The notes: generated by a model from the sequence alone, not told the origin. A stretch of 64,000 bases of DNA from Escherichia coli (GCF_965641715.1 NZ_OZ282455.1), one strand, 5' to 3'; positions 3,933 through 17,168 are shown, counted from the first letter of the stretch. Made by a program: numbers and translations.

Positions 3933-4270
3933 GGAAGTCGCCGCCGGCTCCGCTTTACCCGGCCATGCAGAGCATGGCCTTGTGGTTTTCAGTTATGTGG
4001 CCTCAGCGTCGTGTGCGGGCTGTGCCGTGCCTCCATCTTAGCCGGGCTGGCGTTGATGCAAGGGTACGCTTCGCCGCTGCGGTCACCCGGTCCCTCCTTC
4101 CCGTCTGCCGTGATTTTCCGGTCGTTCACCCGCTCAGATTTCGCGGTCTCACCCTCCAACTCCCGCCAGCCGTGTGCGTCAGGCTGCGGCTTCCCTTGCG
4201 CCCCTGCATCCCCGCCTTATCGCCCGGCTTTTCTGGAGGCACGGCACCGCCCGGTGTCGCGGAATATGTG
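3933..4270. repeat. dispersed leading-region repeat, family A copy 1 (candidate ssDNA promoter / ssi element)
   Basis: About 340 nt nearly identical to 10878..11218; GC-rich, non-coding, ends about 20 nt before klcA start. Confidence 0.7.
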
Positions 4271-4289
4271 AACAACGGAGGAAAACATC

Positions 4290-4715
4290 ATGCAATATGC
4301 GAAACCTGTCACTCTGAACGTTGAAGAGTGCGACCGTTTGTCTTTTCTGCCTTACCTGTTTGGCCAGGATTTTCTGTATGCCGAAGCGTCTGTATACGCG
4401 CTGGCGAAACAAATGATGCCGGAATATGAAGGCGGATTCTGGCACTTCATCCGCCTGCCGGACGGTGGCGGTTACATGATGCCGGACGGTGACCGTTTCC
4501 ACATGGTGAACGGTGCAAACTGGTTTGACCGTACCGTGAGTGCTGATGCCGCAGGCATCATCCTTACCTCCCTTGTGATTAACCGCCAGTTGTGGCTGTA
4601 CCACGACAGCGGGGATGCAGGACTGACCCAGCTTTACCGGATGCGCGATGCGCAGTTGTGGCGTCACATCGAATTTCACCCTGAATGCAACGCGATTTAC
4701 GCAGCACTGGACTGA
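4290..4715 (+). CDS. klcA: KlcA/ArdB-family antirestriction protein
   Basis: 141 aa; RLSFLP, GGFWHF and C-terminal AIYAALD motifs matching my memory of KlcA/ArdB. Confidence 0.8.
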
Positions 4716-5411: not shown

Positions 5412-6125
5412 AAAACCCCTGGCAGGCTGACGCCTGCCGGAAATGCGGGGTGCAGCGCCTGCGGCGCTGCCGGCCCGGCTTTCCGGTCAGAAGGTAGTGT
5501 ATGGCTGTATGCAGGGAACAGGTGTGATATTCCGTGACACTGTCACTGTTTCTGGCTGTCTTTTATTGCGCCCACTTCGGCTCCCGGCTGCCTGGCGGCA
5601 TCCGGTCGTCAGGCCCGACTCCGACAGGCAGCTGCTGGCGCACCCGCCAGTCTCCGCCGAACCCGCTGGCGCGGTTTCGGGCTGCCGCTACGGTCCGATG
5701 CGTGAAAACCCGGCTTGCAGCGACCGTTCCGGTCGCGCCGCCCCTGTCGCGCCGTGACCTGCGCTCCCTGCACACCTGACGGTGTGTGAGGAAACTGCGC
5801 CTGATGGCGCAGCAGTCTTCCCTCCTGCCGCCACCCCTGCGGCCTGTTTCCCGCTGTGGACTTTCCGGGGGGCAGACGTAACCCCCTCCCGTTCCATCTG
5901 TCCAGGGTGAGATGCACCGGCCACAAAATTTTTAGCCATGAACCCGGCTAAAAATTTTGCGTCCGCCCCCGGACAGCTGTCCCGTGAGGCGGTAAACGGG
6001 CCCCCATCGGAAAGGTCCACTGCGGGGAGAAACCCCTGTGAAGTGGACGGCAGGAGGAGCTTTCGCTCCTCTGAAGGGGCACATGAACGTCCCGTCGCCG
6101 GTATCCGGTTTATCTCACATCTTTC
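5412..6125. repeat. dispersed leading-region repeat, family B copy 1 (candidate ssDNA promoter / Frpo-ssi-like element)
   Basis: About 700 nt highly similar to 11782..12445; 3' part (about 5745..6125) also shared with 14961..15315; contains AT-rich palindrome CAAAATTTTTAGCC-N9-GGCTAAAAATTTTG; ends at ssb SD. Confidence 0.7.
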
Positions 6126-6140: not shown

Positions 6141-6668
6141 ATGAGTGCACGTGGTATCAACAAGGTCATCCTCGTCGGGCGTCTGGGCAATGATCCGGAA
6201 GTCCGTTACATCCCCAACGGGGGCGCAGTGGCAAACCTGCAGGTGGCCACATCAGAAAGCTGGCGTGACAAACAGACGGGGGAGATGCGGGAGCAGACGG
6301 AATGGCACCGCGTGGTGCTGTTCGGCAAGCTCGCGGAAGTGGCAGGTGAATATCTGTGCAAGGGTGCGCAGGTCTACATCGAAGGTCAGCTTCGCACCCG
6401 TAGCTGGGAAGATAACGGTATCACCCGTTACGTCACTGAAATTCTTGTTAAGACCACGGGCACCATGCAGATGCTGGGGAGTGCACCACAGCAGAACGCT
6501 CAGGCGCAACCGAAGCCTCAGCAGAATGGGCAGCCACAGAGTGCTGACGCGACGAAAAAAGGTGGCGCGAAAACGAAAGGCCGTGGACGTAAGGCCGCGC
6601 AGCCCGAGCCTCAGCCGCAACCGCCGGAGGGGGAGGATTACGGGTTTTCAGACGATATCCCGTTCTGA
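6141..6668 (+). CDS. ssb: single-stranded DNA-binding protein (plasmid SSB)
   Basis: 175 aa; OB-fold N-terminus ([16 protein letters not shown]...), Gln/Pro-rich linker, acidic tail DDIPF. Confidence 0.95.
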
Positions 6669-10877: not shown

Positions 10878-11218
10878 GGAAGTCGCCGGCGGCTCCGCTT
10901 TTACCCGGCCATGCGGGGCATGGCCTTGTGGGTTTTCAGCTCTGTGGCCTCAGCGTCGTGTGCGGGCTGTGCCGTGCCTCCATCTTAGCCGGGCTGGCAG
11001 GGATGCAAGGGTACGCTTCGCCGCTGCGGTCACCCGGTCCCTCCTTCCCGTCTGCCGTGATTTTCCGGTCGTTCACCCGCTCAGATTTCGCGGTCTCACC
11101 CTCCAACTCCCGCCAGCCGTGTGCGTCAGGCTGCGGCTTCCCTTGCGCCCTGTGCATCCCCGCCTTATCGCCCGGCTTTTATGGAGGCACGGCACCGCCC
11201 GGTGCCGCAGAACATGTG
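10878..11218. repeat. dispersed leading-region repeat, family A copy 2 (candidate ssDNA promoter / ssi element)
   Basis: Near-identical to 3933..4270; ends about 18 nt before ardA start. Confidence 0.7.
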
Positions 11219-11236
11219 ACTATGGAGGATTCGGGA

Positions 11237-11737
11237 ATGTCTGTTGTTGCACCTGCTGTATACGTTGGAACCTGGCACAAATACAACTGTGGAAGTATCG
11301 CCGGACGCTGGTTTGACCTGACCACGTTTGATGATGAGCGCGACTTTTTCGCCGCCTGCCGTGCTCTTCACCAGGATGAAGCCGATCCTGAACTGATGTT
11401 TCAGGATTATGAGGGATTCCCGGGGAATATGGCCTCTGAATGCCATATCAACTGGGCCTGGGTTGAAGGCTTCCGCCGGGCACGGGATGAAGGCTGCGAA
11501 GAGGCTTATCGTCTCTGGGTGGATGATACCGGTGAGACGGATTTTGACACCTTCCGCGATGCCTGGTGGGGCGAGGCTGACAGTGAGTAGGCTTTTGCGG
11601 TTGAGTTCGTCAGTGATACCGGCCTGCTGGCTGACGTGCCGGAGACGGTGGCGCTCTATTTTGACTATGAGGCGTATGCGCGGGATTTATTCCTGGACTC
11701 CTTCACCTTTATTGACGGTCATGTGTTCCGTCGGTGA
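11237..11737 (+). pseudogene. ardA: ArdA antirestriction gene interrupted by in-frame TAG at codon 118
   Basis: [20 protein letters not shown]... matches ArdA; reading frame stops at TAG 11588..11590 (…GEADSE*) and resumes in frame with the ArdA C-terminus (AFAVEFVSDTGLLADVPETVALYFDYEAYARD…RR*) to TGA 11735..11737. Confidence 0.85.
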
Positions 11738-11781
11738 TTTACTCCCCCGCTCCGGCGGGGGTATGGCCTGCCAGGCCGCCG

Positions 11782-12445
11782 GAAAACCCTGGCAGGCTTA
11801 CGCCTGCCTGAAATGCAGGAGGGCCGCGCCTGCGGCGCTGCCCTTCCTGCCCGTCATGGTGTGAGGCATTTTTCTGTTATGTCGTTTCTGTTGTTCTGAT
11901 TTCCGGAGGCGGGGACACCTTCGGCTCCCGGCTGCCTGGCGGCATCCGGTCGTCAGGCCCGACTCCGACAGGCAGCTGCTGGCGCACCCGCCAGTCTCCG
12001 CCGAACCCGCTGGCGCGGTTTCGGGCTGCCGCTACGGTCCGATGTCTGAAAAACCAGGCTTGCAGCGACCGTTCCGGTCGCGCCGCCCCTGTCGCGCCGG
12101 AAACGGCGCTCCCTGCACACCTGACGGTGTGTAAGGCCACTGCGCCTGATGGCGCAGTCAACCCTTCCGCCGCCACCCCTGCGGCCTGTTTCCCGCTGTG
12201 GACTTTCCGGGGGCTGGAGTAACCACATCCCGTTTCAGCAGTCTAGGGGAAGATATACCGTCCACAAAATTTTTAGCCATAAACCCGGCAAAAAATTTTG
12301 CGTCCGCCCCCGGACAGCTGCCCCGTGACGTGGTGACGGACGCCCCATCGGAAAGGTCCACTGCGGGGAGAAACCCCGAAGAAGTGGACGGCAGAAGGGG
12401 CTTTCGCCCCTCCGGGGAGCAACCGGTCGGCCCGGCGACCTGATT
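11782..12445. repeat. dispersed leading-region repeat, family B copy 2
   Basis: Similar to 5412..6125 over about 660 nt; ends at SD of ORF 12466. Confidence 0.7.
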
Positions 12446-12465
12446 CAGCAGAAGGAGACGTTTTC

Positions 12466-12900
12466 ATGACAGTCAGCAGCACGATTTCCGTTTTTTGCCG
12501 CGACGGGGTGTTCCGTACCGTTTACTGCCACCTGCACGGGGAGCCGACCTGGAACGGTCGCATCCTGCATACCCACTATGCCACCGGTCAGCAGGCCGAA
12601 GCCCTGGTTGAACACGGTGATATCCGTTGCCTCGGTCCCCGTTGCGACAAACCCGCCGGGCATACGCTTCAGAACCCGGTGGACGGTGTGACGGCTTATT
12701 ACGGACGTGACAGTGGTTTCCGGATGGACAGTGAGGCGCGTGAGTACCGTTCTTTCAGGGAGGCTATTGCCACTGAAAGCACTGAAGAGGTGCGCTTCCA
12801 TTATGTGTTCATCGACGGCTACTGGAAGGTGATGTACCGCACGCCGGAAGGCTGGAAGATGAAAGCGCTCGCGCTGGCACTGCGTCGCTGTCCGAAATGA
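12466..12900 (+). CDS. hypothetical protein (144 aa)
   Basis: Track ORF with GAAGGAGA SD; immediately downstream of family B repeat; hairpin after stop. Confidence 0.6.
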   Translation: MTVSSTISVFCRDGVFRTVYCHLHGEPTWNGRILHTHYATGQQAEALVEHGDIRCLGPRCDKPAGHTLQNPVDGVTAYYGRDSGFRMDSEAREYRSFREAIATESTEEVRFHYVFIDGYWKVMYRTPEGWKMKALALALRRCPK

Positions 12901-12993
12901 AAAAAAGGCAGGGCGATAAACCCTGCCTCTCTCCGCCGGCGCTTCCCCGCCAGGAAGTCCGGCATCTCAATCACTATCTATGGAGATTATGCC

Positions 12994-13260
12994 ATGAGAC
13001 CATCAATTATCTTCGCAACCGCCGAGTATGTAAAGCGTCTGCGTGAAGAGTGCCTGCGGGAGAATAAACCCCTGCACCGCCATACCCGCTTCAGACGTCA
13101 GGAGCTGGCACAGGATGAGATTAACCCGGACGTCCTGGCGATGAGCGGCCATATCGCCAGACGCTGCAGTGAGCAGAAGCGGGTGCGTATCCCCGCTATG
13201 AAAGTCAGCGAATGGGGCCACCTGCTCCGCGCGCTTGAAATTGAGCGGGTCTGCCACTGA
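12994..13260 (+). CDS. hypothetical protein (88 aa)
   Basis: Track ORF with GGAG SD. Confidence 0.5.
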   Translation: MRPSIIFATAEYVKRLREECLRENKPLHRHTRFRRQELAQDEINPDVLAMSGHIARRCSEQKRVRIPAMKVSEWGHLLRALEIERVCH

Positions 13261-13324
13261 TTAACCCTTGCCGTCTGCCTGTGCAGGCGGCAGGATACGT
13301 TCAGACATCTCACCAGGAGGAACC

Positions 13325-14251
13325 GTGAGTAAGAAGAAAACCACCACGACGCCCACGCCGCATGATGCCGCGTTCCGGTCGTTCCTGGCGAATCCCGACG
13401 TCGCCAGAGATTTTCTGGAACTGCATCTTCCGGCGGAGTACCGGCAGTTGTGCGACCTGTCCACGCTGAAGCTGGAACCCGCCACCTTTGTTGAGCCGGA
13501 CCTGCATCAGTACGCCAGCGATATCCTCTGGAGTGTGAAAACCACCGGGGGTGAAGATGGCTATGTTTATACGCTCATCGAGCACCAGAGCACCGAAAAT
13601 CTGTACATGCCTTTCCGCATGTTACGTTACAGTGTGGCGGCGATGCAGAGACATCTGGAGCAGCACAAAACGTTGCCACTGGTCATTCCGGTGCTGTTCT
13701 ATCACGGTGAGCGCAGCCCGTACCCGTACAGCATGAACTGGCTGGACTGTTTTGAGAATCCGGCGCTTGCGGCTAAAATATACACAAAGCCGTTTCCGCT
13801 GGTTGATATCACTGTCGTTGATGACAATGAAATCATGAACCATCGCCGGATGGCCGCACTGACGCTGCTGATGAAGCATATCCGCCATCGTGACATGATG
13901 GAGCTGCTGGACAAACTCCCGCAGGTCATGGTGGAAATTTCAGACGAGCAGGTGCGTGTTCTGATTCATTACATCGTTAACGCAGGGGACTCTGTATCAC
14001 CGGAATTTATGCGGGCGCTGGCTGAGCGTCTGCCGCAGCATGAGGATAAACTGATGACTATCGCAGAACGTCTTGAGCAAAAAGGTCGCCAGGAAGGCAG
14101 GATGGAAGGACGCATGGAAGGACGCATGGAAGGAGCGCTTGAAAAAGCCCTGGCTATTGCGTGCCAGCTTCAGAAAATGGGGATGACGCCGGAGCAGATT
14201 AAGCAGGCTACCGGACTTTCCGATGACGAACTGAAGAAAATCACTCACTGA
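13325..14251 (+). CDS. Rpn-family recombination-promoting nuclease (YhgA-like, PD-(D/E)xK)
   Basis: Track ORF 13268..14251; GTG at 13325 after CAGGAGG; YhgA-like N-terminal region; C-terminal tandem GRMEGRMEGRMEG repeat (about 14096..14134). Confidence 0.75.
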   Translation: MSKKKTTTTPTPHDAAFRSFLANPDVARDFLELHLPAEYRQLCDLSTLKLEPATFVEPDLHQYASDILWSVKTTGGEDGYVYTLIEHQSTENLYMPFRMLRYSVAAMQRHLEQHKTLPLVIPVLFYHGERSPYPYSMNWLDCFENPALAAKIYTKPFPLVDITVVDDNEIMNHRRMAALTLLMKHIRHRDMMELLDKLPQVMVEISDEQVRVLIHYIVNAGDSVSPEFMRALAERLPQHEDKLMTIAERLEQKGRQEGRMEGRMEGRMEGALEKALAIACQLQKMGMTPEQIKQATGLSDDELKKITH

Positions 14252-14262
14252 GTAAACATCAC

Positions 14263-14288
14263 AGCCCGGCAAAATGCCGGGCTTTTTT
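14263..14288 (+). terminator. Rho-independent terminator
   Basis: AGCCCGGC-aaaat-GCCGGGC followed by TTTTTT after Rpn stop. Confidence 0.6.
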
Positions 14289-14312
14289 GTCAGCAGGAGC
14301 AGAGCAAACAGC

Positions 14313-14471
14313 ATGACGATTGCAGAACGTCTTATTCAAAAAGGCGCACTTGAAGTGGCGCGGGAAATAGCCTGCCGGCTGCGGGATATGGGCTGGACGC
14401 CGGAACGGATTCAGGAGGCAACCGGACTTTCCGGTGAAGAACTGAAAAAGCTGTTTCCTGATGAGCAGTAG
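14313..14471 (+). CDS. small protein homologous to the Rpn C-terminal tail (RpnS/YpaA-like)
   Basis: 52 aa (MTIAERLIQKGALEVAREIACRL…) aligns with the last about 60 aa of the upstream Rpn protein but lacks the GRMEG repeats. Confidence 0.5.
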   Translation: MTIAERLIQKGALEVAREIACRLRDMGWTPERIQEATGLSGEELKKLFPDEQ

Positions 14472-14501
14472 CCTGGCATTCAGCCAGGCTGTGAATCACG
14501 C

Positions 14502-14753
14502 TCACACATCCTCTGCCGTTTCCCCCAGTTCATTTTCCAGTCGCCTGATGATATCTGCCTTACGCATCCCCTGCATGTGAGGCAGCAGGTCACGGACTGA
14601 AAGTGCCTGGGTGGTCCTCCAGACGGTGACGTCCACCTGTTCCGCATTTTCCCAGGCGTGCCATGTTCTCTGCGTCACGCCAAATTCTCTGGCCGCTTTT
14701 TCGCGTGACCAGAGCATGCTTTTTCGCCAGATTCGCAGTTCCCAGCCGGTCAT
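14502..14753 (-). CDS. small HTH DNA-binding protein (XRE/Cro-like candidate regulator)
   Basis: 83 aa; HTH-like segment SREKAAREFGVTQRTWHAWEN; AAGGTG SD; divergent from leading genes. Confidence 0.6.
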   Translation of the reverse strand: MTGWELRIWRKSMLWSREKAAREFGVTQRTWHAWENAEQVDVTVWRTTQALSVRDLLPHMQGMRKADIIRRLENELGETAEDV

Positions 14754-14767
14754 AAAACACCTTTAAA

Positions 14768-14788
14768 AAAGTGAAAAAACTTCACTTT
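14768..14788. promoter_or_regulatory. operator-like palindrome AAAGTGAA-N5-TTCACTTT (site 1)
   Basis: Perfect 8-bp inverted repeat about 15 nt upstream of the HTH gene start. Confidence 0.5.
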
Positions 14789-14834
14789 ATTTTATCATCA
14801 TAATCACCAAATTAACGCGATAAATAAGTGTGAA

Positions 14835-14855
14835 AAAGTGAAGAAATTTCACTTT
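14835..14855. promoter_or_regulatory. operator-like palindrome AAAGTGAA-N5-TTCACTTT (site 2)
   Basis: Second identical palindrome 67 bp from site 1 in an AT-rich divergent promoter region. Confidence 0.5.
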
Positions 14856-14960
14856 TTTTGCTTGTAAATGTCGTGCGGTTTTCTCTGTTTTCACCTGTGC
14901 GGGAGTGGTGTGCCAGTGACCACCACATGCCATTGTTGTGCCGTCGTTTTTCTTCAGTCG

Positions 14961-15315
14961 CGCCGTATGCGGCGCTCCCTGCACACCTTACGGTGTGTAA
15001 GGCCACTGCGCCTGATGGCGCAGCTGTCTCTGCCTGTCTGCCGCCGCACTGCGGCCTGTTCTCCGCAGACGGACTTTCCGGGGGTACATACATGACCACA
15101 TCCCGTTTCAGTCGTCCAGGGGAGAGATGTACCAGCCACAAAACTTTTTGCCGCAGGCGTCAAAAACTTTTGCGTCTGCCCCCGGACAACTGCCCCGTGA
15201 CGTGGTGAGCGTCCCCCGTCGGAAAGGTCCACTGCGGGGAAATCCCCGAAGACCCGGACGGCAGAAGGAGCTTCGCTCCTCCGGGAAATGACCTGGCTGA
15301 CCCGGCAGTCGTGAC
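14961..15315. repeat. dispersed leading-region repeat, family B copy 3 (3' unit only)
   Basis: Matches only the 3' about 355 nt of copies 1 and 2; ends at SD of ORF 15330. Confidence 0.65.
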
Positions 15316-15329
15316 GATGAGGAGACAAT

Positions 15330-16181
15330 GTGATGAATCAGACTTTACCCACTGCTGACCTGAATACTGCCGGCACGACAGATGTTATTCCGTCTGTGGC
15401 TATCGACCGCATCATCGCGCAGCGTAACGAAGGTATTGCACTGTTCATGCAGGCGATGGAATGCCTGGCGACAGCGCGCAAGATTCTGCTCGATGCGTCA
15501 GGTGATATTTTTCTTTACGGGTTTGAAGACTGCGTGACTGATTCCGTTCGTCGCATAGATAAACCGGAAGAAGCGAAAAGGAATATCACCCGTCTTGCCG
15601 ACCGGAAAATCTGGGATCGCCTGATGACAGATACGGGCATGTACACCTTCATGAGTTCATGCCAGCGTGATGAGTGGAACAGCCAGCTGATGAGCGACAC
15701 CTGTCCTGAAATCACCCTGGACAATGTACTGGCAACATTCCGCCATCTGAATGCCTGCAAGATGCAGACATTTGAACAGGGACTGATTGATGTCTACCGG
15801 AAATTGTCATGGGATTACAGAACCAATAATCCCTGCCGTCTGGGTAAGAAAATCATTATTGAAAACCTGCTGTACCGCTGGAGTAACGGGCGTGTGACGC
15901 TGGACTGCAGCGGACGGGAGGCACTGGATGACCTGGTACGTCCGTTTTATCTGCTGGAGGGGCGCAACGTTCCTGACTTCAGGAACAGTATCGGGGCGCA
16001 GTATGGTGAATTTCTCGGGAACGGCGACAATGTCGGTAAGCTGTTAGAAGGGGAATATTTTACGGTGCGTGGCTACCAGAAAGGGACCGTACACATTGTC
16101 TTTAAGCGTTCTGACCTTGTTGAAAAACTGAATGATATTATTGCACGGCATTATCCAGGTGCATTGCCGCCACGAGTCTGA
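15330..16181 (+). CDS. hypothetical protein (283 aa), oriT-proximal leading gene
   Basis: Track ORF with GAGGAGA SD; hairpin plus T-run after stop. Confidence 0.6.
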   Translation: MMNQTLPTADLNTAGTTDVIPSVAIDRIIAQRNEGIALFMQAMECLATARKILLDASGDIFLYGFEDCVTDSVRRIDKPEEAKRNITRLADRKIWDRLMTDTGMYTFMSSCQRDEWNSQLMSDTCPEITLDNVLATFRHLNACKMQTFEQGLIDVYRKLSWDYRTNNPCRLGKKIIIENLLYRWSNGRVTLDCSGREALDDLVRPFYLLEGRNVPDFRNSIGAQYGEFLGNGDNVGKLLEGEYFTVRGYQKGTVHIVFKRSDLVEKLNDIIARHYPGALPPRV

Positions 16182-16266
16182 TTAAACAGAAAAGCCCTGG
16201 TATTTATGCCGGGGCTTTTTTTTCTGTAATCATCATAATCTCAGAACACGATGTGACATTGTCACA

Positions 16267-16602
16267 TCAATTGTTGTTCATATCGATGCCATCTTTCCTG
16301 CCTGAATCTGTCTTTTTAGGTGCTGTTTTAGAGGAAGAACGGCGGGATGGTTTTTTCGATTCTGCTTCCCGAATAATGTCACGAAGTGCCTTCTCTCCTA
16401 CTTCATACCCTGCATTTTTGAGCGTGTCACGAACATCTGCCAGTGTATAACCCTTTGTCCTTACCAGGACAATAATGTCATCACGAATGGCATCAAGAAA
16501 ATCACGCAATGTTTTCCGTTGAGCGGTGAGATCTGGCAATTCCGATAAAGCAGCTTTTGCCAGCTGGATGTCATCATCTGAGTAAAATTTTTTAGAAGCC
16601 AT
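16267..16602 (-). CDS. hypothetical small protein with basic C-terminal tail (111 aa)
   Basis: Track ORF 16267..16608 (GTG); ATG at 16602 with GGAGAG SD; tail SKKPSRRSSSKTAPKKTDSGRKDG suggests nucleic-acid binding. Confidence 0.5.
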   Translation of the reverse strand: MASKKFYSDDDIQLAKAALSELPDLTAQRKTLRDFLDAIRDDIIVLVRTKGYTLADVRDTLKNAGYEVGEKALRDIIREAESKKPSRRSSSKTAPKKTDSGRKDGIDMNNN

Positions 16603-16660
16603 TGGCACTTTCTCTCCGTTTCATGTTGAAGTCTGATTTTATCATCAAAAACTGACTCCT

Positions 16661-16791
16661 GGCAGGGCTGCGCCCTGCCTCTGCCGTCTGCATAAGACTA
16701 TGATGCACAAAAATAACAGGCTATAATGGCCTGAAAAACGGGACAGGATGTGCAATTGTAATACCGTCACACGCGACGCTATTACAATTGC
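16661..16791 (-). other. oriT: oriT (origin of transfer) with predicted nic site on the - strand
   Basis: 12-bp inverted repeat GCAATTGTAATA / TATTACAATTGC (16752..16763, 16780..16791); on the - strand the repeat is followed by ACATCCTG then TCCC, matching the IncP-type nick consensus ATCCTG|Y, which places the nick between + coordinates 16744/16743, 8 nt from the repeat; second palindrome GGCAGGGCTGCGCCCTGCC at 16661..16679; directly upstream of nikA. Confidence 0.7.
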
Positions 16792-16835
16792 CATCTGGTC
16801 AGGGCTTCGCCCCGACACCCCGTAAGGAGCCTGAA

Positions 16836-17168
16836 GTGAGTGATAGTGCGGTAAGAAAGAAAAGTGAGGTACGGCAAAAGACAGTTGTCAGGACACTCAG
16901 ATTCTCTCCTGTTGAGGATGAAACCATCAGGAAAAAAGCTGAAGATTCCGGACTTACTGTATCTGCTTACATCCGAAATGCAGCACTGAATAAGCGAATT
17001 AACTCCCGTACAGATGATGCTTTTCTGAAGGAGTTAATGAGACTGGGAAGGATGCAGAAGCATCTGTTTGTTCAGGGAAAAAGAACCGGTGACAAGGAAT
17101 ACGCAGAAGTGCTTGTTGCCATAACCGAACTTACAAATACATTGCGTAAACAGTTAATGGAAGGTTGA
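16836..17168 (+). CDS. nikA: relaxosome accessory protein NikA
   Basis: Track ORF 16788..17168; GTG at 16836 after AAGGAG gives 110 aa; adjacent to oriT and nikB. Confidence 0.85.
   Translation: MSDSAVRKKSEVRQKTVVRTLRFSPVEDETIRKKAEDSGLTVSAYIRNAALNKRINSRTDDAFLKELMRLGRMQKHLFVQGKRTGDKEYAEVLVAITELTNTLRKQLMEG

Follow-up and report, generated by a model that had tools for sequence, protein, structure and literature searches.

A 64,000-nucleotide stretch of Escherichia coli DNA (GCF_965641715.1, NZ_OZ282455.1), referred to throughout as the window, carries at positions 12466–16181 two plus-strand open reading frames (ORFs) that stand directly behind copies of a long repeat. The first, ORF144 (12466–12900, plus strand), encodes a 144-aa hypothetical protein (WP_000218863.1; Hp16 of plasmid pESBL-EA11, hereafter pESBL), and the second (15333–16181, plus strand) encodes a DUF4942 protein (WP_001077023.1; Hp22 of pESBL). 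An initial annotation of the window had likened both to ssb, proposed early expression from repeats resembling single-stranded DNA (ssDNA) promoters, and suggested establishment or anti-defence roles. IncI1 plasmids, to which the locus is assigned below, are major carriers of extended-spectrum beta-lactamase genes.

Gene order, repeats and origin of transfer

Over 11800–16700 the window is 100% identical to pRKI3099a, an E. coli plasmid (IncI-gamma/K1, MOBP relaxase, MPF_I), and this interval is matched in part by at least 5000 plasmid records, with 1893 covering at least 80% of it. Gene names and order were taken from the RefSeq annotation of pRKI3099a, with coordinates shifted by 201 nt. On the ssb side these are a DNA methylase, a KlcA-like antirestriction gene, ssb, a parB-like gene, psiB, psiA and ardA (11237–11737). 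After ardA come the 144-aa hypothetical, an 88-aa hypothetical, an Rpn nuclease and a 65-aa ORF, followed towards the origin of transfer (oriT) by a helix-turn-helix (HTH) regulator and a further 65-aa ORF (both on the minus strand), the DUF4942 gene, 'MobC'/yggA (minus strand), nikA and nikB. The genes and repeats of pESBL are 99% identical to those of the window and follow the same order. These genes make up the leading region of an IncI1-type conjugative plasmid. From ssb to nikA, order and orientation are those found with ssi1–ssi3 of pESBL-EA11, ColIb-P9 and R64, and nothing of substance differs; pESBL has one additional 390-nt ORF before the Rpn gene.

The repeat, called family B in the initial annotation, is present in exactly three copies in the window (BLAST of the 336-nt query 12085–12420). 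The copies are 326–329 nt long and 80–87% identical, with E values from 1e-74 to 1e-111, which places the family far beyond chance, and repeat finding, three-way alignment and BLAST were concordant. The functional strand of each copy is the transferred minus strand, and each lies directly 5' of a plus-strand gene. The copy named ssi3 in Benz 2023 (5746–6071, start 5740/5746) precedes ssb (6141–6668, plus strand, in the RefSeq annotation of the identical plasmid), the gene that had served as the reference arrangement; ssi2 (12091–12416) precedes ORF144; and ssi1 (14957–15285), the copy nearest oriT, precedes the DUF4942 gene. The distance of at most 20 nt that had been given between repeat and gene did not stand. 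Measured from the end of repeat similarity to the start codon, the gaps are 69 nt for ssb, 49 nt for ORF144 and 47 nt for the DUF4942 gene (44 nt to a GTG). They are short and equivalent in all three copies, and the arrangement is indeed that of ssb. Both ORFs exist as described. The second extends mechanically over 15330–16181, and its RefSeq start is the ATG at 15333, which follows GAGGAG; the ATG of ORF144 lies 8 nt after an AAGGAG ribosome-binding site.

On the transferred strand (T-strand) all three elements form a long imperfect hairpin of ~230 nt whose apex is an A/T-rich palindrome. The minus-strand folds have energies of −104.8 kcal/mol (z −9.4) for ssi3, −100.3 kcal/mol (z −7.9) for ssi2 and −101.9 kcal/mol (z −9.4) for ssi1, and for each element none of 100 shuffles was as stable as the native T-strand fold. 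The complementary strand is ~10 kcal/mol less stable (−90.8 kcal/mol for the plus strand of ssi2). The apex loop occupies 12278–12287 in ssi2 and 15153–15158 in ssi1, and a bulge of 8–10 nt on the non-template arm is conserved (8 nt in ssi2, 10 nt in ssi1). Candidate promoter boxes in the elements are a conserved T(G/A)GAC(N) with a mismatched segment 17 nt on, and the conserved bulge; neither is a good hexamer pair in all copies. A promoter scan found no canonical duplex sigma-70 promoter between either ssi1 or ssi2 and its gene, and Rfam gave nothing credible across 11700–16900.

Plasmid F, for which NC_002483 was used, likewise has T-strand elements of ~328 nt with a long imperfect hairpin and an A/T-rich apex, namely Frpo1 and Frpo2 (Masai & Arai 1997; Couturier 2023). 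They too lie 5' of leading genes that point towards oriT, and Frpo2 also precedes ssb. Primary similarity between the Frpo elements and the copies in the window is limited to ~80 nt at ~79% and a 27-nt end; alignment with Frpo1 and Frpo2 recovers the same structure, with 23 pairs retained through changes on both sides. In length, homology, T-strand stem-loop, and position and orientation within the leading region, the three elements are members of the Frpo/ssi class 1.

The 17-bp inverted repeat and nick region of an IncI1 oriT were seen in the sequence at 16738–16810, where CATCCTG|TCCC reads on the minus strand, and oriT of pESBL (70354–70436, annotation of Yamaichi 2015) maps to 16739–16821 by synteny with nikA. 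The sole gene separating the DUF4942 gene from oriT is 'MobC'/yggA (16267–16602), on the minus strand. We take the nick to lie at ~16744/16743 in the window, presumably the site described in Furuya & Komano 1991. Given this nick, the minus strand is transferred, 5' first and with coordinates decreasing, and is therefore the template for all plus-strand genes. The strand and transfer direction assumed in the initial annotation agree with the oriT sequence, and the DUF4942 gene is, as claimed there, the oriT-proximal plus-strand gene. Among the readable genes it enters first, with its stop codon 562 nt from the nick. The successive elements are complete after ~1.8 kb (ssi1), ~4.7 kb (ssi2) and ~11 kb (the ssb element) of transfer, intervals that amount to seconds at the commonly quoted transfer speed, so that entering first is true and carries little kinetic weight.

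Early expression of the ssi2 and ssi1 operons

A terminator scan placed terminator-like hairpins at 14263–14283, after the Rpn gene, and at 16250–16268, after the DUF4942 gene. These delimit two operons: the ssi2 operon, in which ORF144 is followed by the 88-aa ORF and the Rpn gene, and the ssi1 operon, of which the DUF4942 gene is the sole member. We interpret the region as the two oriT-proximal class 1 ssDNA-promoter operons of the IncI1 leading region, and put the probability of this interpretation at roughly 85%. Identity, copy number, strand, folding, synteny and operon limits were computed in this analysis; early induction, start sites, dependence on single-strandedness and priming come from published work on F or on a plasmid 99% identical to this one.

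The closest of these data are for pESBL. In Wen 2025 (PMC12672017), donors were eliminated and recipient RNA was sequenced after mating with pESBL-EA11. Six leading-region operons were up to ~500-fold induced at 15 min and then decayed, induction was prolonged in a uvrD recipient, and start sites were obtained by 5' rapid amplification of cDNA ends (RACE). Three of the promoters, ssi1–3, are termed 'class 1' and are the strongest, and the hairpins of ardA and klcA are termed 'class 2'. The class 1 elements of pESBL are 99.1–99.7% identical to those of the window and lie directly 5' of ssb, hp16 (ORF144) and hp22 (DUF4942). Hp16 is 99.3% identical to ORF144, and Hp22 is 98.9% identical to the DUF4942 protein. 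The early expression from ssDNA promoters that had been proposed for the window thus matches published recipient RNA sequencing and 5' RACE on ~99%-identical elements. The proposal was therefore correct and had already been demonstrated, with the one caveat that hp16 and hp22 are placed in the induced operons by their position.

The background to this is older. Elements of this kind have been known since 1997–99, and the ssi1–3 sites of ColIb-P9 have been reviewed as homologous to Frpo, which is 328 nt long and serves as a single-stranded promoter and a primer site. The idea of early-expressed leading-region cargo is described in Bates 1999, Venturini 2013, Benz 2023 and Samuel 2024. Venturini 2013 reported three Frpo repeats, R1–R3, in the IncI leading region and a loss of the intervening 9.7 kb by recombination, and Benz 2023 refers to 'three operons transcribed by ssi3-1' in IncI plasmids. 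For F, deletion of Frpo abolishes early expression (Couturier 2023). The locus is therefore an ordinary and well-described one in IncI1 plasmids and in itself teaches nothing new, since its layout and early expression are published.

Under the mechanism that we favour, NikB would nick oriT at ~16743 and the minus strand would enter the recipient 5' first. After entry, each 326–329-nt element would fold back on itself, the resulting long imperfect hairpin would imitate a duplex promoter, and host RNA polymerase would make plus-sense message from the still single-stranded template. Two messages are predicted, one for DUF4942 alone and one for ORF144, the 88-aa ORF and the Rpn nuclease. The same transcripts could prime synthesis of the complementary strand, and formation of the duplex would abolish the hairpins and switch expression off (zygotic induction).

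Priming could also be the main function of the hairpins, which would then be single-strand initiation sites with the ORFs behind them as passengers and their expression incidental. The elements were indeed first defined as ssi or primer-RNA sites (as reviewed), and a 2026 preprint reports that in F, transcription from Frpo speeds local duplex conversion in vivo and the transcripts prime this conversion. ORF144 and DUF4942 are also dispensable in transposon-insertion sequencing (Tn-seq), and pO111-CRL115 has lost 9.7 kb between the repeats with laboratory conjugation unchanged (Venturini 2013). Set against this, the published model has both functions together, and in F the proteins encoded by Frpo transcripts were detected before conversion (Couturier 2023). 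According to Samuel 2024, these families of cargo proteins hardly occur outside leading regions, and their genes are on the strand that can be read; both ORF144 and the DUF4942 gene also have proper ribosome-binding sites and deep conservation. We consider it improbable that the two genes are passengers of priming sites.

In a second alternative, a mobile 'leading-region cassette' ends or recombines at the repeats, so that gene placement would reflect shuffling and not promoter function. Venturini 2013 proposed a mobile element on finding that a sister plasmid lacks exactly the 9.7 kb between R1 and R3, and F and IncI1 carry different, non-homologous genes behind Frpo. The oriT-proximal cargo of F consists of ygeA (95 aa) and ygeB (DUF932), neither of them related to ORF144 or DUF4942; in pairwise comparison, BLASTP gave no significant alignment of ORF144 or DUF4942 with YgeA or YgeB. 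Further, on the Pantoea ananatis plasmid CP099537 (7370–8870) the gene for a 52% identical DUF4942 protein follows a Frpo-like hairpin (−95 kcal/mol, z −6.1) in what is the ssb slot of IncI1 and F, between klcA/DUF1380 and DUF905/parB/psiB. The Pantoea arrangement, which also counts in favour of our main interpretation, shows cargo being swapped behind conserved promoter cassettes. However, homologous recombination between direct repeats explains the 9.7-kb loss, shuffling is compatible with promoter function and is not an alternative to it, and promoter activity has been shown experimentally (Wen 2025; Couturier 2023). As a replacement for promoter function, the cassette explanation is highly improbable.

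The ORF144 and DUF4942 proteins

The functions of both proteins had been called unknown, and database searches did not change this. ORF144 gave no Pfam or NCBIfam match, and the two PHROG families that it matched are of unknown function; searches of PADLOC, Pfam, NCBIfam and the PDB offered no functional handle, and no solved relative was found in the PDB. It nevertheless belongs to a large family. An exhaustive search returned 1981 representative clusters (~2000 at 50% identity), 258 of them at E ≤1e-10, with the shared motifs M-x-T-R-S, Y-C-H-x-D-G-Y, G-D-x-S-x-L, G-H-[ST]-F, Y-G-R-D-R-G, E-Y-x-Y and G-x-W. The AlphaFold model (predicted local distance difference test score, pLDDT, 97) is that of a small alpha/beta protein, and the family has an invariant His22/His66/Arg81/Asp82/Tyr/Trp pocket. 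Relatives occur in early or accessory regions of jumbo phages (GAP32, BF), KVP40-like vibriophages and cyanophages (early regions in the last), and in an ArdC-rich Salmonella island, whose protein is 43% identical. On plasmids, ORF144 was found in the IncI complex only, in 2016 records that are almost all at least 95% identical and 94% of which are conjugative. With lower confidence, we favour a ligand-binding or catalytic role for ORF144. A DNA mimic of the ArdA/Ocr type would be strongly acidic, and ORF144 is mildly basic (isoelectric point, pI, 8.3; net charge +2), so it is not such a mimic. Its composition is unusual, with a GC content of 0.59 and a third-position GC content (GC3) of 0.68, whereas the window as a whole has a GC of 0.51 and the neighbouring genes a GC3 of 0.48–0.59.

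Two names in circulation would give ORF144 a function. NCBI and UniRef name it and its relatives PndC, and Samuel 2024 and Benz 2023 took the name up; if the name were right, ORF144 would be part of the pnd (hok/sok-type) system for post-segregational killing. The real PndC of pESBL is, however, a short frame at 79766–79969 that overlaps pndA (79821–79976) and lies ~14 kb away, beyond the nikAB-trbABC genes, and the Hok/Gef gene is a distinct gene, ~14 kb from ORF144/Hp16, in each of the two annotated plasmids. The size of the family (~2000 clusters) and its occurrence in lytic jumbo phages and cyanophages also fit poorly with such a system, and NCBIfam and Pfam gave no relation to Hok/Mok. 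There is next to no chance that ORF144 is PndC. The second name, CcgAII of the IncN plasmids pKM101/R46, was tried and rejected: hhalign of the family profile against CcgAI and CcgAII returned probabilities of 0.1% and 0.3%, and tblastn of all R46 ccg products (CcgAI, CcgAII, CcgC and CcgD) against the window found no match. On these comparisons, neither label stands.

The DUF4942 protein (282 aa) is of the YdiA/YgfB family. Its only Pfam match is PF13708 (E 3.2e-50, model positions 5–189 of 190), and this and a PHROG match were all that the searches gave, with no functional handle. The structural model (pLDDT 86) has a helical N-terminal part followed by an alpha/beta part and no significant PDB match. 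Plasmid records with a homologue number at least 5000 (≥90% identity in ~2000) and come from many Inc groups, including IncL/M and large MOBH plasmids. With a pI of 6.0 and a net charge of −2, compared with pI 4.15 and −23 for the ArdA of the window, the protein is not strongly acidic, and a role as a DNA mimic of the ArdA/Ocr type was rejected.

In phages and prophages, ~280 DUF4942-like residues form the N-terminal half of fusion proteins of 513–591 aa, whose C-terminal half (residues ~370–515) carries a class I S-adenosylmethionine (SAM) methyltransferase signature (MTS/N6_Mtase). In gp22 of the Pseudomonas phage phiPSA1 and gp32 of the Marinomonas phage P12026, the N-terminal half aligns with the whole plasmid DUF4942 protein at 23–30% identity; the plasmid protein lacks the methyltransferase half. 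At least 2401 clusters match a fusion query at E ≤1e-5, some perhaps through the DUF4942 half alone, and the best 120 matches are 513–591 aa long with 94–100% of the query aligned. DUF4942 is thus the N-terminal module of a large phage orphan-methyltransferase family, present here without the methyltransferase part.

This bears on whether the DUF4942 protein is itself an orphan DNA methyltransferase that protects the incoming strand in the manner of M.EcoGIX, a single-strand-specific orphan methylase that protects the entering plasmid. The UniProt and Foldseek labels in Supplementary Table 1 of Samuel 2024 read 'Methyltransferase domain', the protein matches phrog_6263 'DNA methyltransferase', and its phage homologues are annotated as methylases. 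However, the 282-aa protein matches PF13708 only, and the Rossmann-like SAM-binding domain of class I SAM-dependent DNA methyltransferases was not found in it. The methyltransferase signal sits in the separate C-terminal half of the fusions, which is absent from the protein and is not encoded elsewhere in the 64-kb window, in pESBL or in the F leading region. That half is moreover unrelated to the M.EcoGIX-type methylase of the plasmid beyond a short SAM-motif-like stretch. We give scarcely any credence to a methyltransferase activity of the DUF4942 protein; since the plasmid form lacks the methyltransferase half, 'methyltransferase' is a name acquired through guilt by fusion. With low confidence, we suggest a DNA-binding or partner-binding module tied to modification or restriction. 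Within the proposed mechanism, DUF4942 would most likely bind DNA or a restriction-modification-related partner and would not itself be a methyltransferase.

Known anti-defence proteins of leading regions offer a comparison. ArdA, KlcA/ArdB and M.EcoGIX have region, strand and expression from ssDNA promoters in common with ORF144 and DUF4942, and all of these are dispensable for transfer into a permissive host; ORF144 and DUF4942 have no sequence or fold relation to the three. In Samuel 2024 both families are leading-region-enriched and uncharacterized, and Supplementary Table 1 there gives 2171 and 1 for family 24 (DUF4942) and 2203 and 7 for family 23 ('PndC'). These counts are taken here as leading region versus elsewhere, the two columns being unlabelled, and family 23 is equated with ORF144 solely through the shared name 'PndC'.

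We infer, with lower confidence than for the operons themselves, that ORF144 and DUF4942 may be accessory establishment or anti-defence factors that matter in some recipients only. A more specific joint proposal is that ORF144 is a new small-protein fold and an anti-defence or host-takeover effector, and that DUF4942 is a non-catalytic, methyltransferase-derived module that blunts restriction. This is tentative, and on balance we would expect at least part of it to fail. If it were true, ORF144 would bind or degrade a small-molecule or nucleic-acid signal of bacterial immunity.

Several points weigh against our interpretation of the operons and their cargo. The genes hp16 and hp22 are assigned to the induced operons of Wen 2025 by their position, and no convincing −35/−10 hexamers could be assigned in the hairpin stems of the elements. 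Tn-seq of pESBL (Yamaichi 2015) scored Hp22 as non-essential (1.00) and Hp16 as 0.76 non-essential and 0.24 'maintenance', and neither is required for transfer into a laboratory recipient; this dispensability means that any establishment role would be conditional. IncI1 ORF144 retains 22 of the 26 strongly conserved positions of its family and departs from the consensus at T3, D24, S54 and R83, and it may as a consequence not have the family's activity. Lastly, PADLOC, Pfam, NCBIfam and the PDB gave no functional handle that would point to an anti-defence activity of ORF144 or DUF4942.

What is added here to the published picture is the relation of the DUF4942 module to the phage fusions, the description of the ORF144 family and the finding that the ORF144 names are unsupported. 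The operons of ORF144 and DUF4942 rank with those that show the strongest induction in the minutes just after plasmid entry, and the analysis points to two well-defined, experimentally tractable proteins, one of which, ORF144, has neither a Pfam family nor a solved relative, and whose names are misleading. Correcting the labels 'PndC', 'ccgAII' and 'methyltransferase' is a small practical gain. Of moderate interest beyond this is what these two proteins, both very widespread and zygotically induced, do biochemically.

Neighbouring genes and further repeats

The second gene of the ssi2 operon is the 88-aa ORF (12994–13260, plus strand; Hp17 of pESBL), which is basic and has no family match. The last is the Rpn-family recombination-promoting nuclease (13325–14251, plus strand; NCBIfam TIGR01784, E 7.5e-53). 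It is followed by a 65-aa ORF (14274–14471, plus strand) that is a copy of the C-terminal segment of Rpn (repeat family D6; TIGR01784 positions 232–273). The duplicated segments, 14130–14238 and 14341–14449, are 75% identical at the DNA level, and the ORF stands directly after the terminator-like hairpin. Rpn proteins have intragenic antitoxins, and a free-standing Rpn C-terminal domain could modulate the nuclease.

Between this ORF and ssi1 lie genes on the minus strand, which is not transcribable from the incoming T-strand. The HTH regulator (14502–14753) is probably family 22 of Samuel 2024, 'aca6-like', judging by name, strand and position. Its neighbour is a very basic 65-aa ORF (14787–14984, minus strand) that overlaps the 5' edge of ssi1 (from 14957). 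The regulator and the basic ORF may come into play once the duplex has formed. On the other side of the DUF4942 gene, YggA (111 aa; Hp23 of pESBL) has no family match and bears the RefSeq name 'molybdopterin-guanine dinucleotide biosynthesis protein MobC'. Beside oriT, the name 'MobC' looks like a collision with the mobilisation MobC proteins.

An extension of ~170 nt on the 5' side of the class 1 core is common to the ssb and ORF144 copies only (5575–5745 and 11919–12090; repeat families D3 and D4, confirmed by BLAST). At 11919–12090 it is moderately structured (z −2.8). The extension is 98% identical over 137 nt, compared with 87% for the 326-nt core, which suggests recent gene conversion or an extra function. 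A second repeat family occupies 3984–4271 and 10931–11219, with blocks 98% and 94% identical, directly 5' of the KlcA-like antirestriction gene (4290–4715) and of ardA (11237–11737), respectively. These repeats correspond to the 'class 2' ssDNA promoters proposed in Wen 2025. On the far side of ssb from ORF144, the 227-aa 'DNA methylase' at 1701–2384 is the counterpart of the M.EcoGIX of pESBL.

Among the plasmids that match 11800–16700, two from Salmonella Bareilly (NZ_CP039490.1 and NZ_CP045756.1) have the match split in two and spanning ~2.3 kb more. Both annotations have ltrA, which encodes a group II intron reverse transcriptase/maturase, within the span of the match, and the extra ~2.3 kb looks like an intron insertion.

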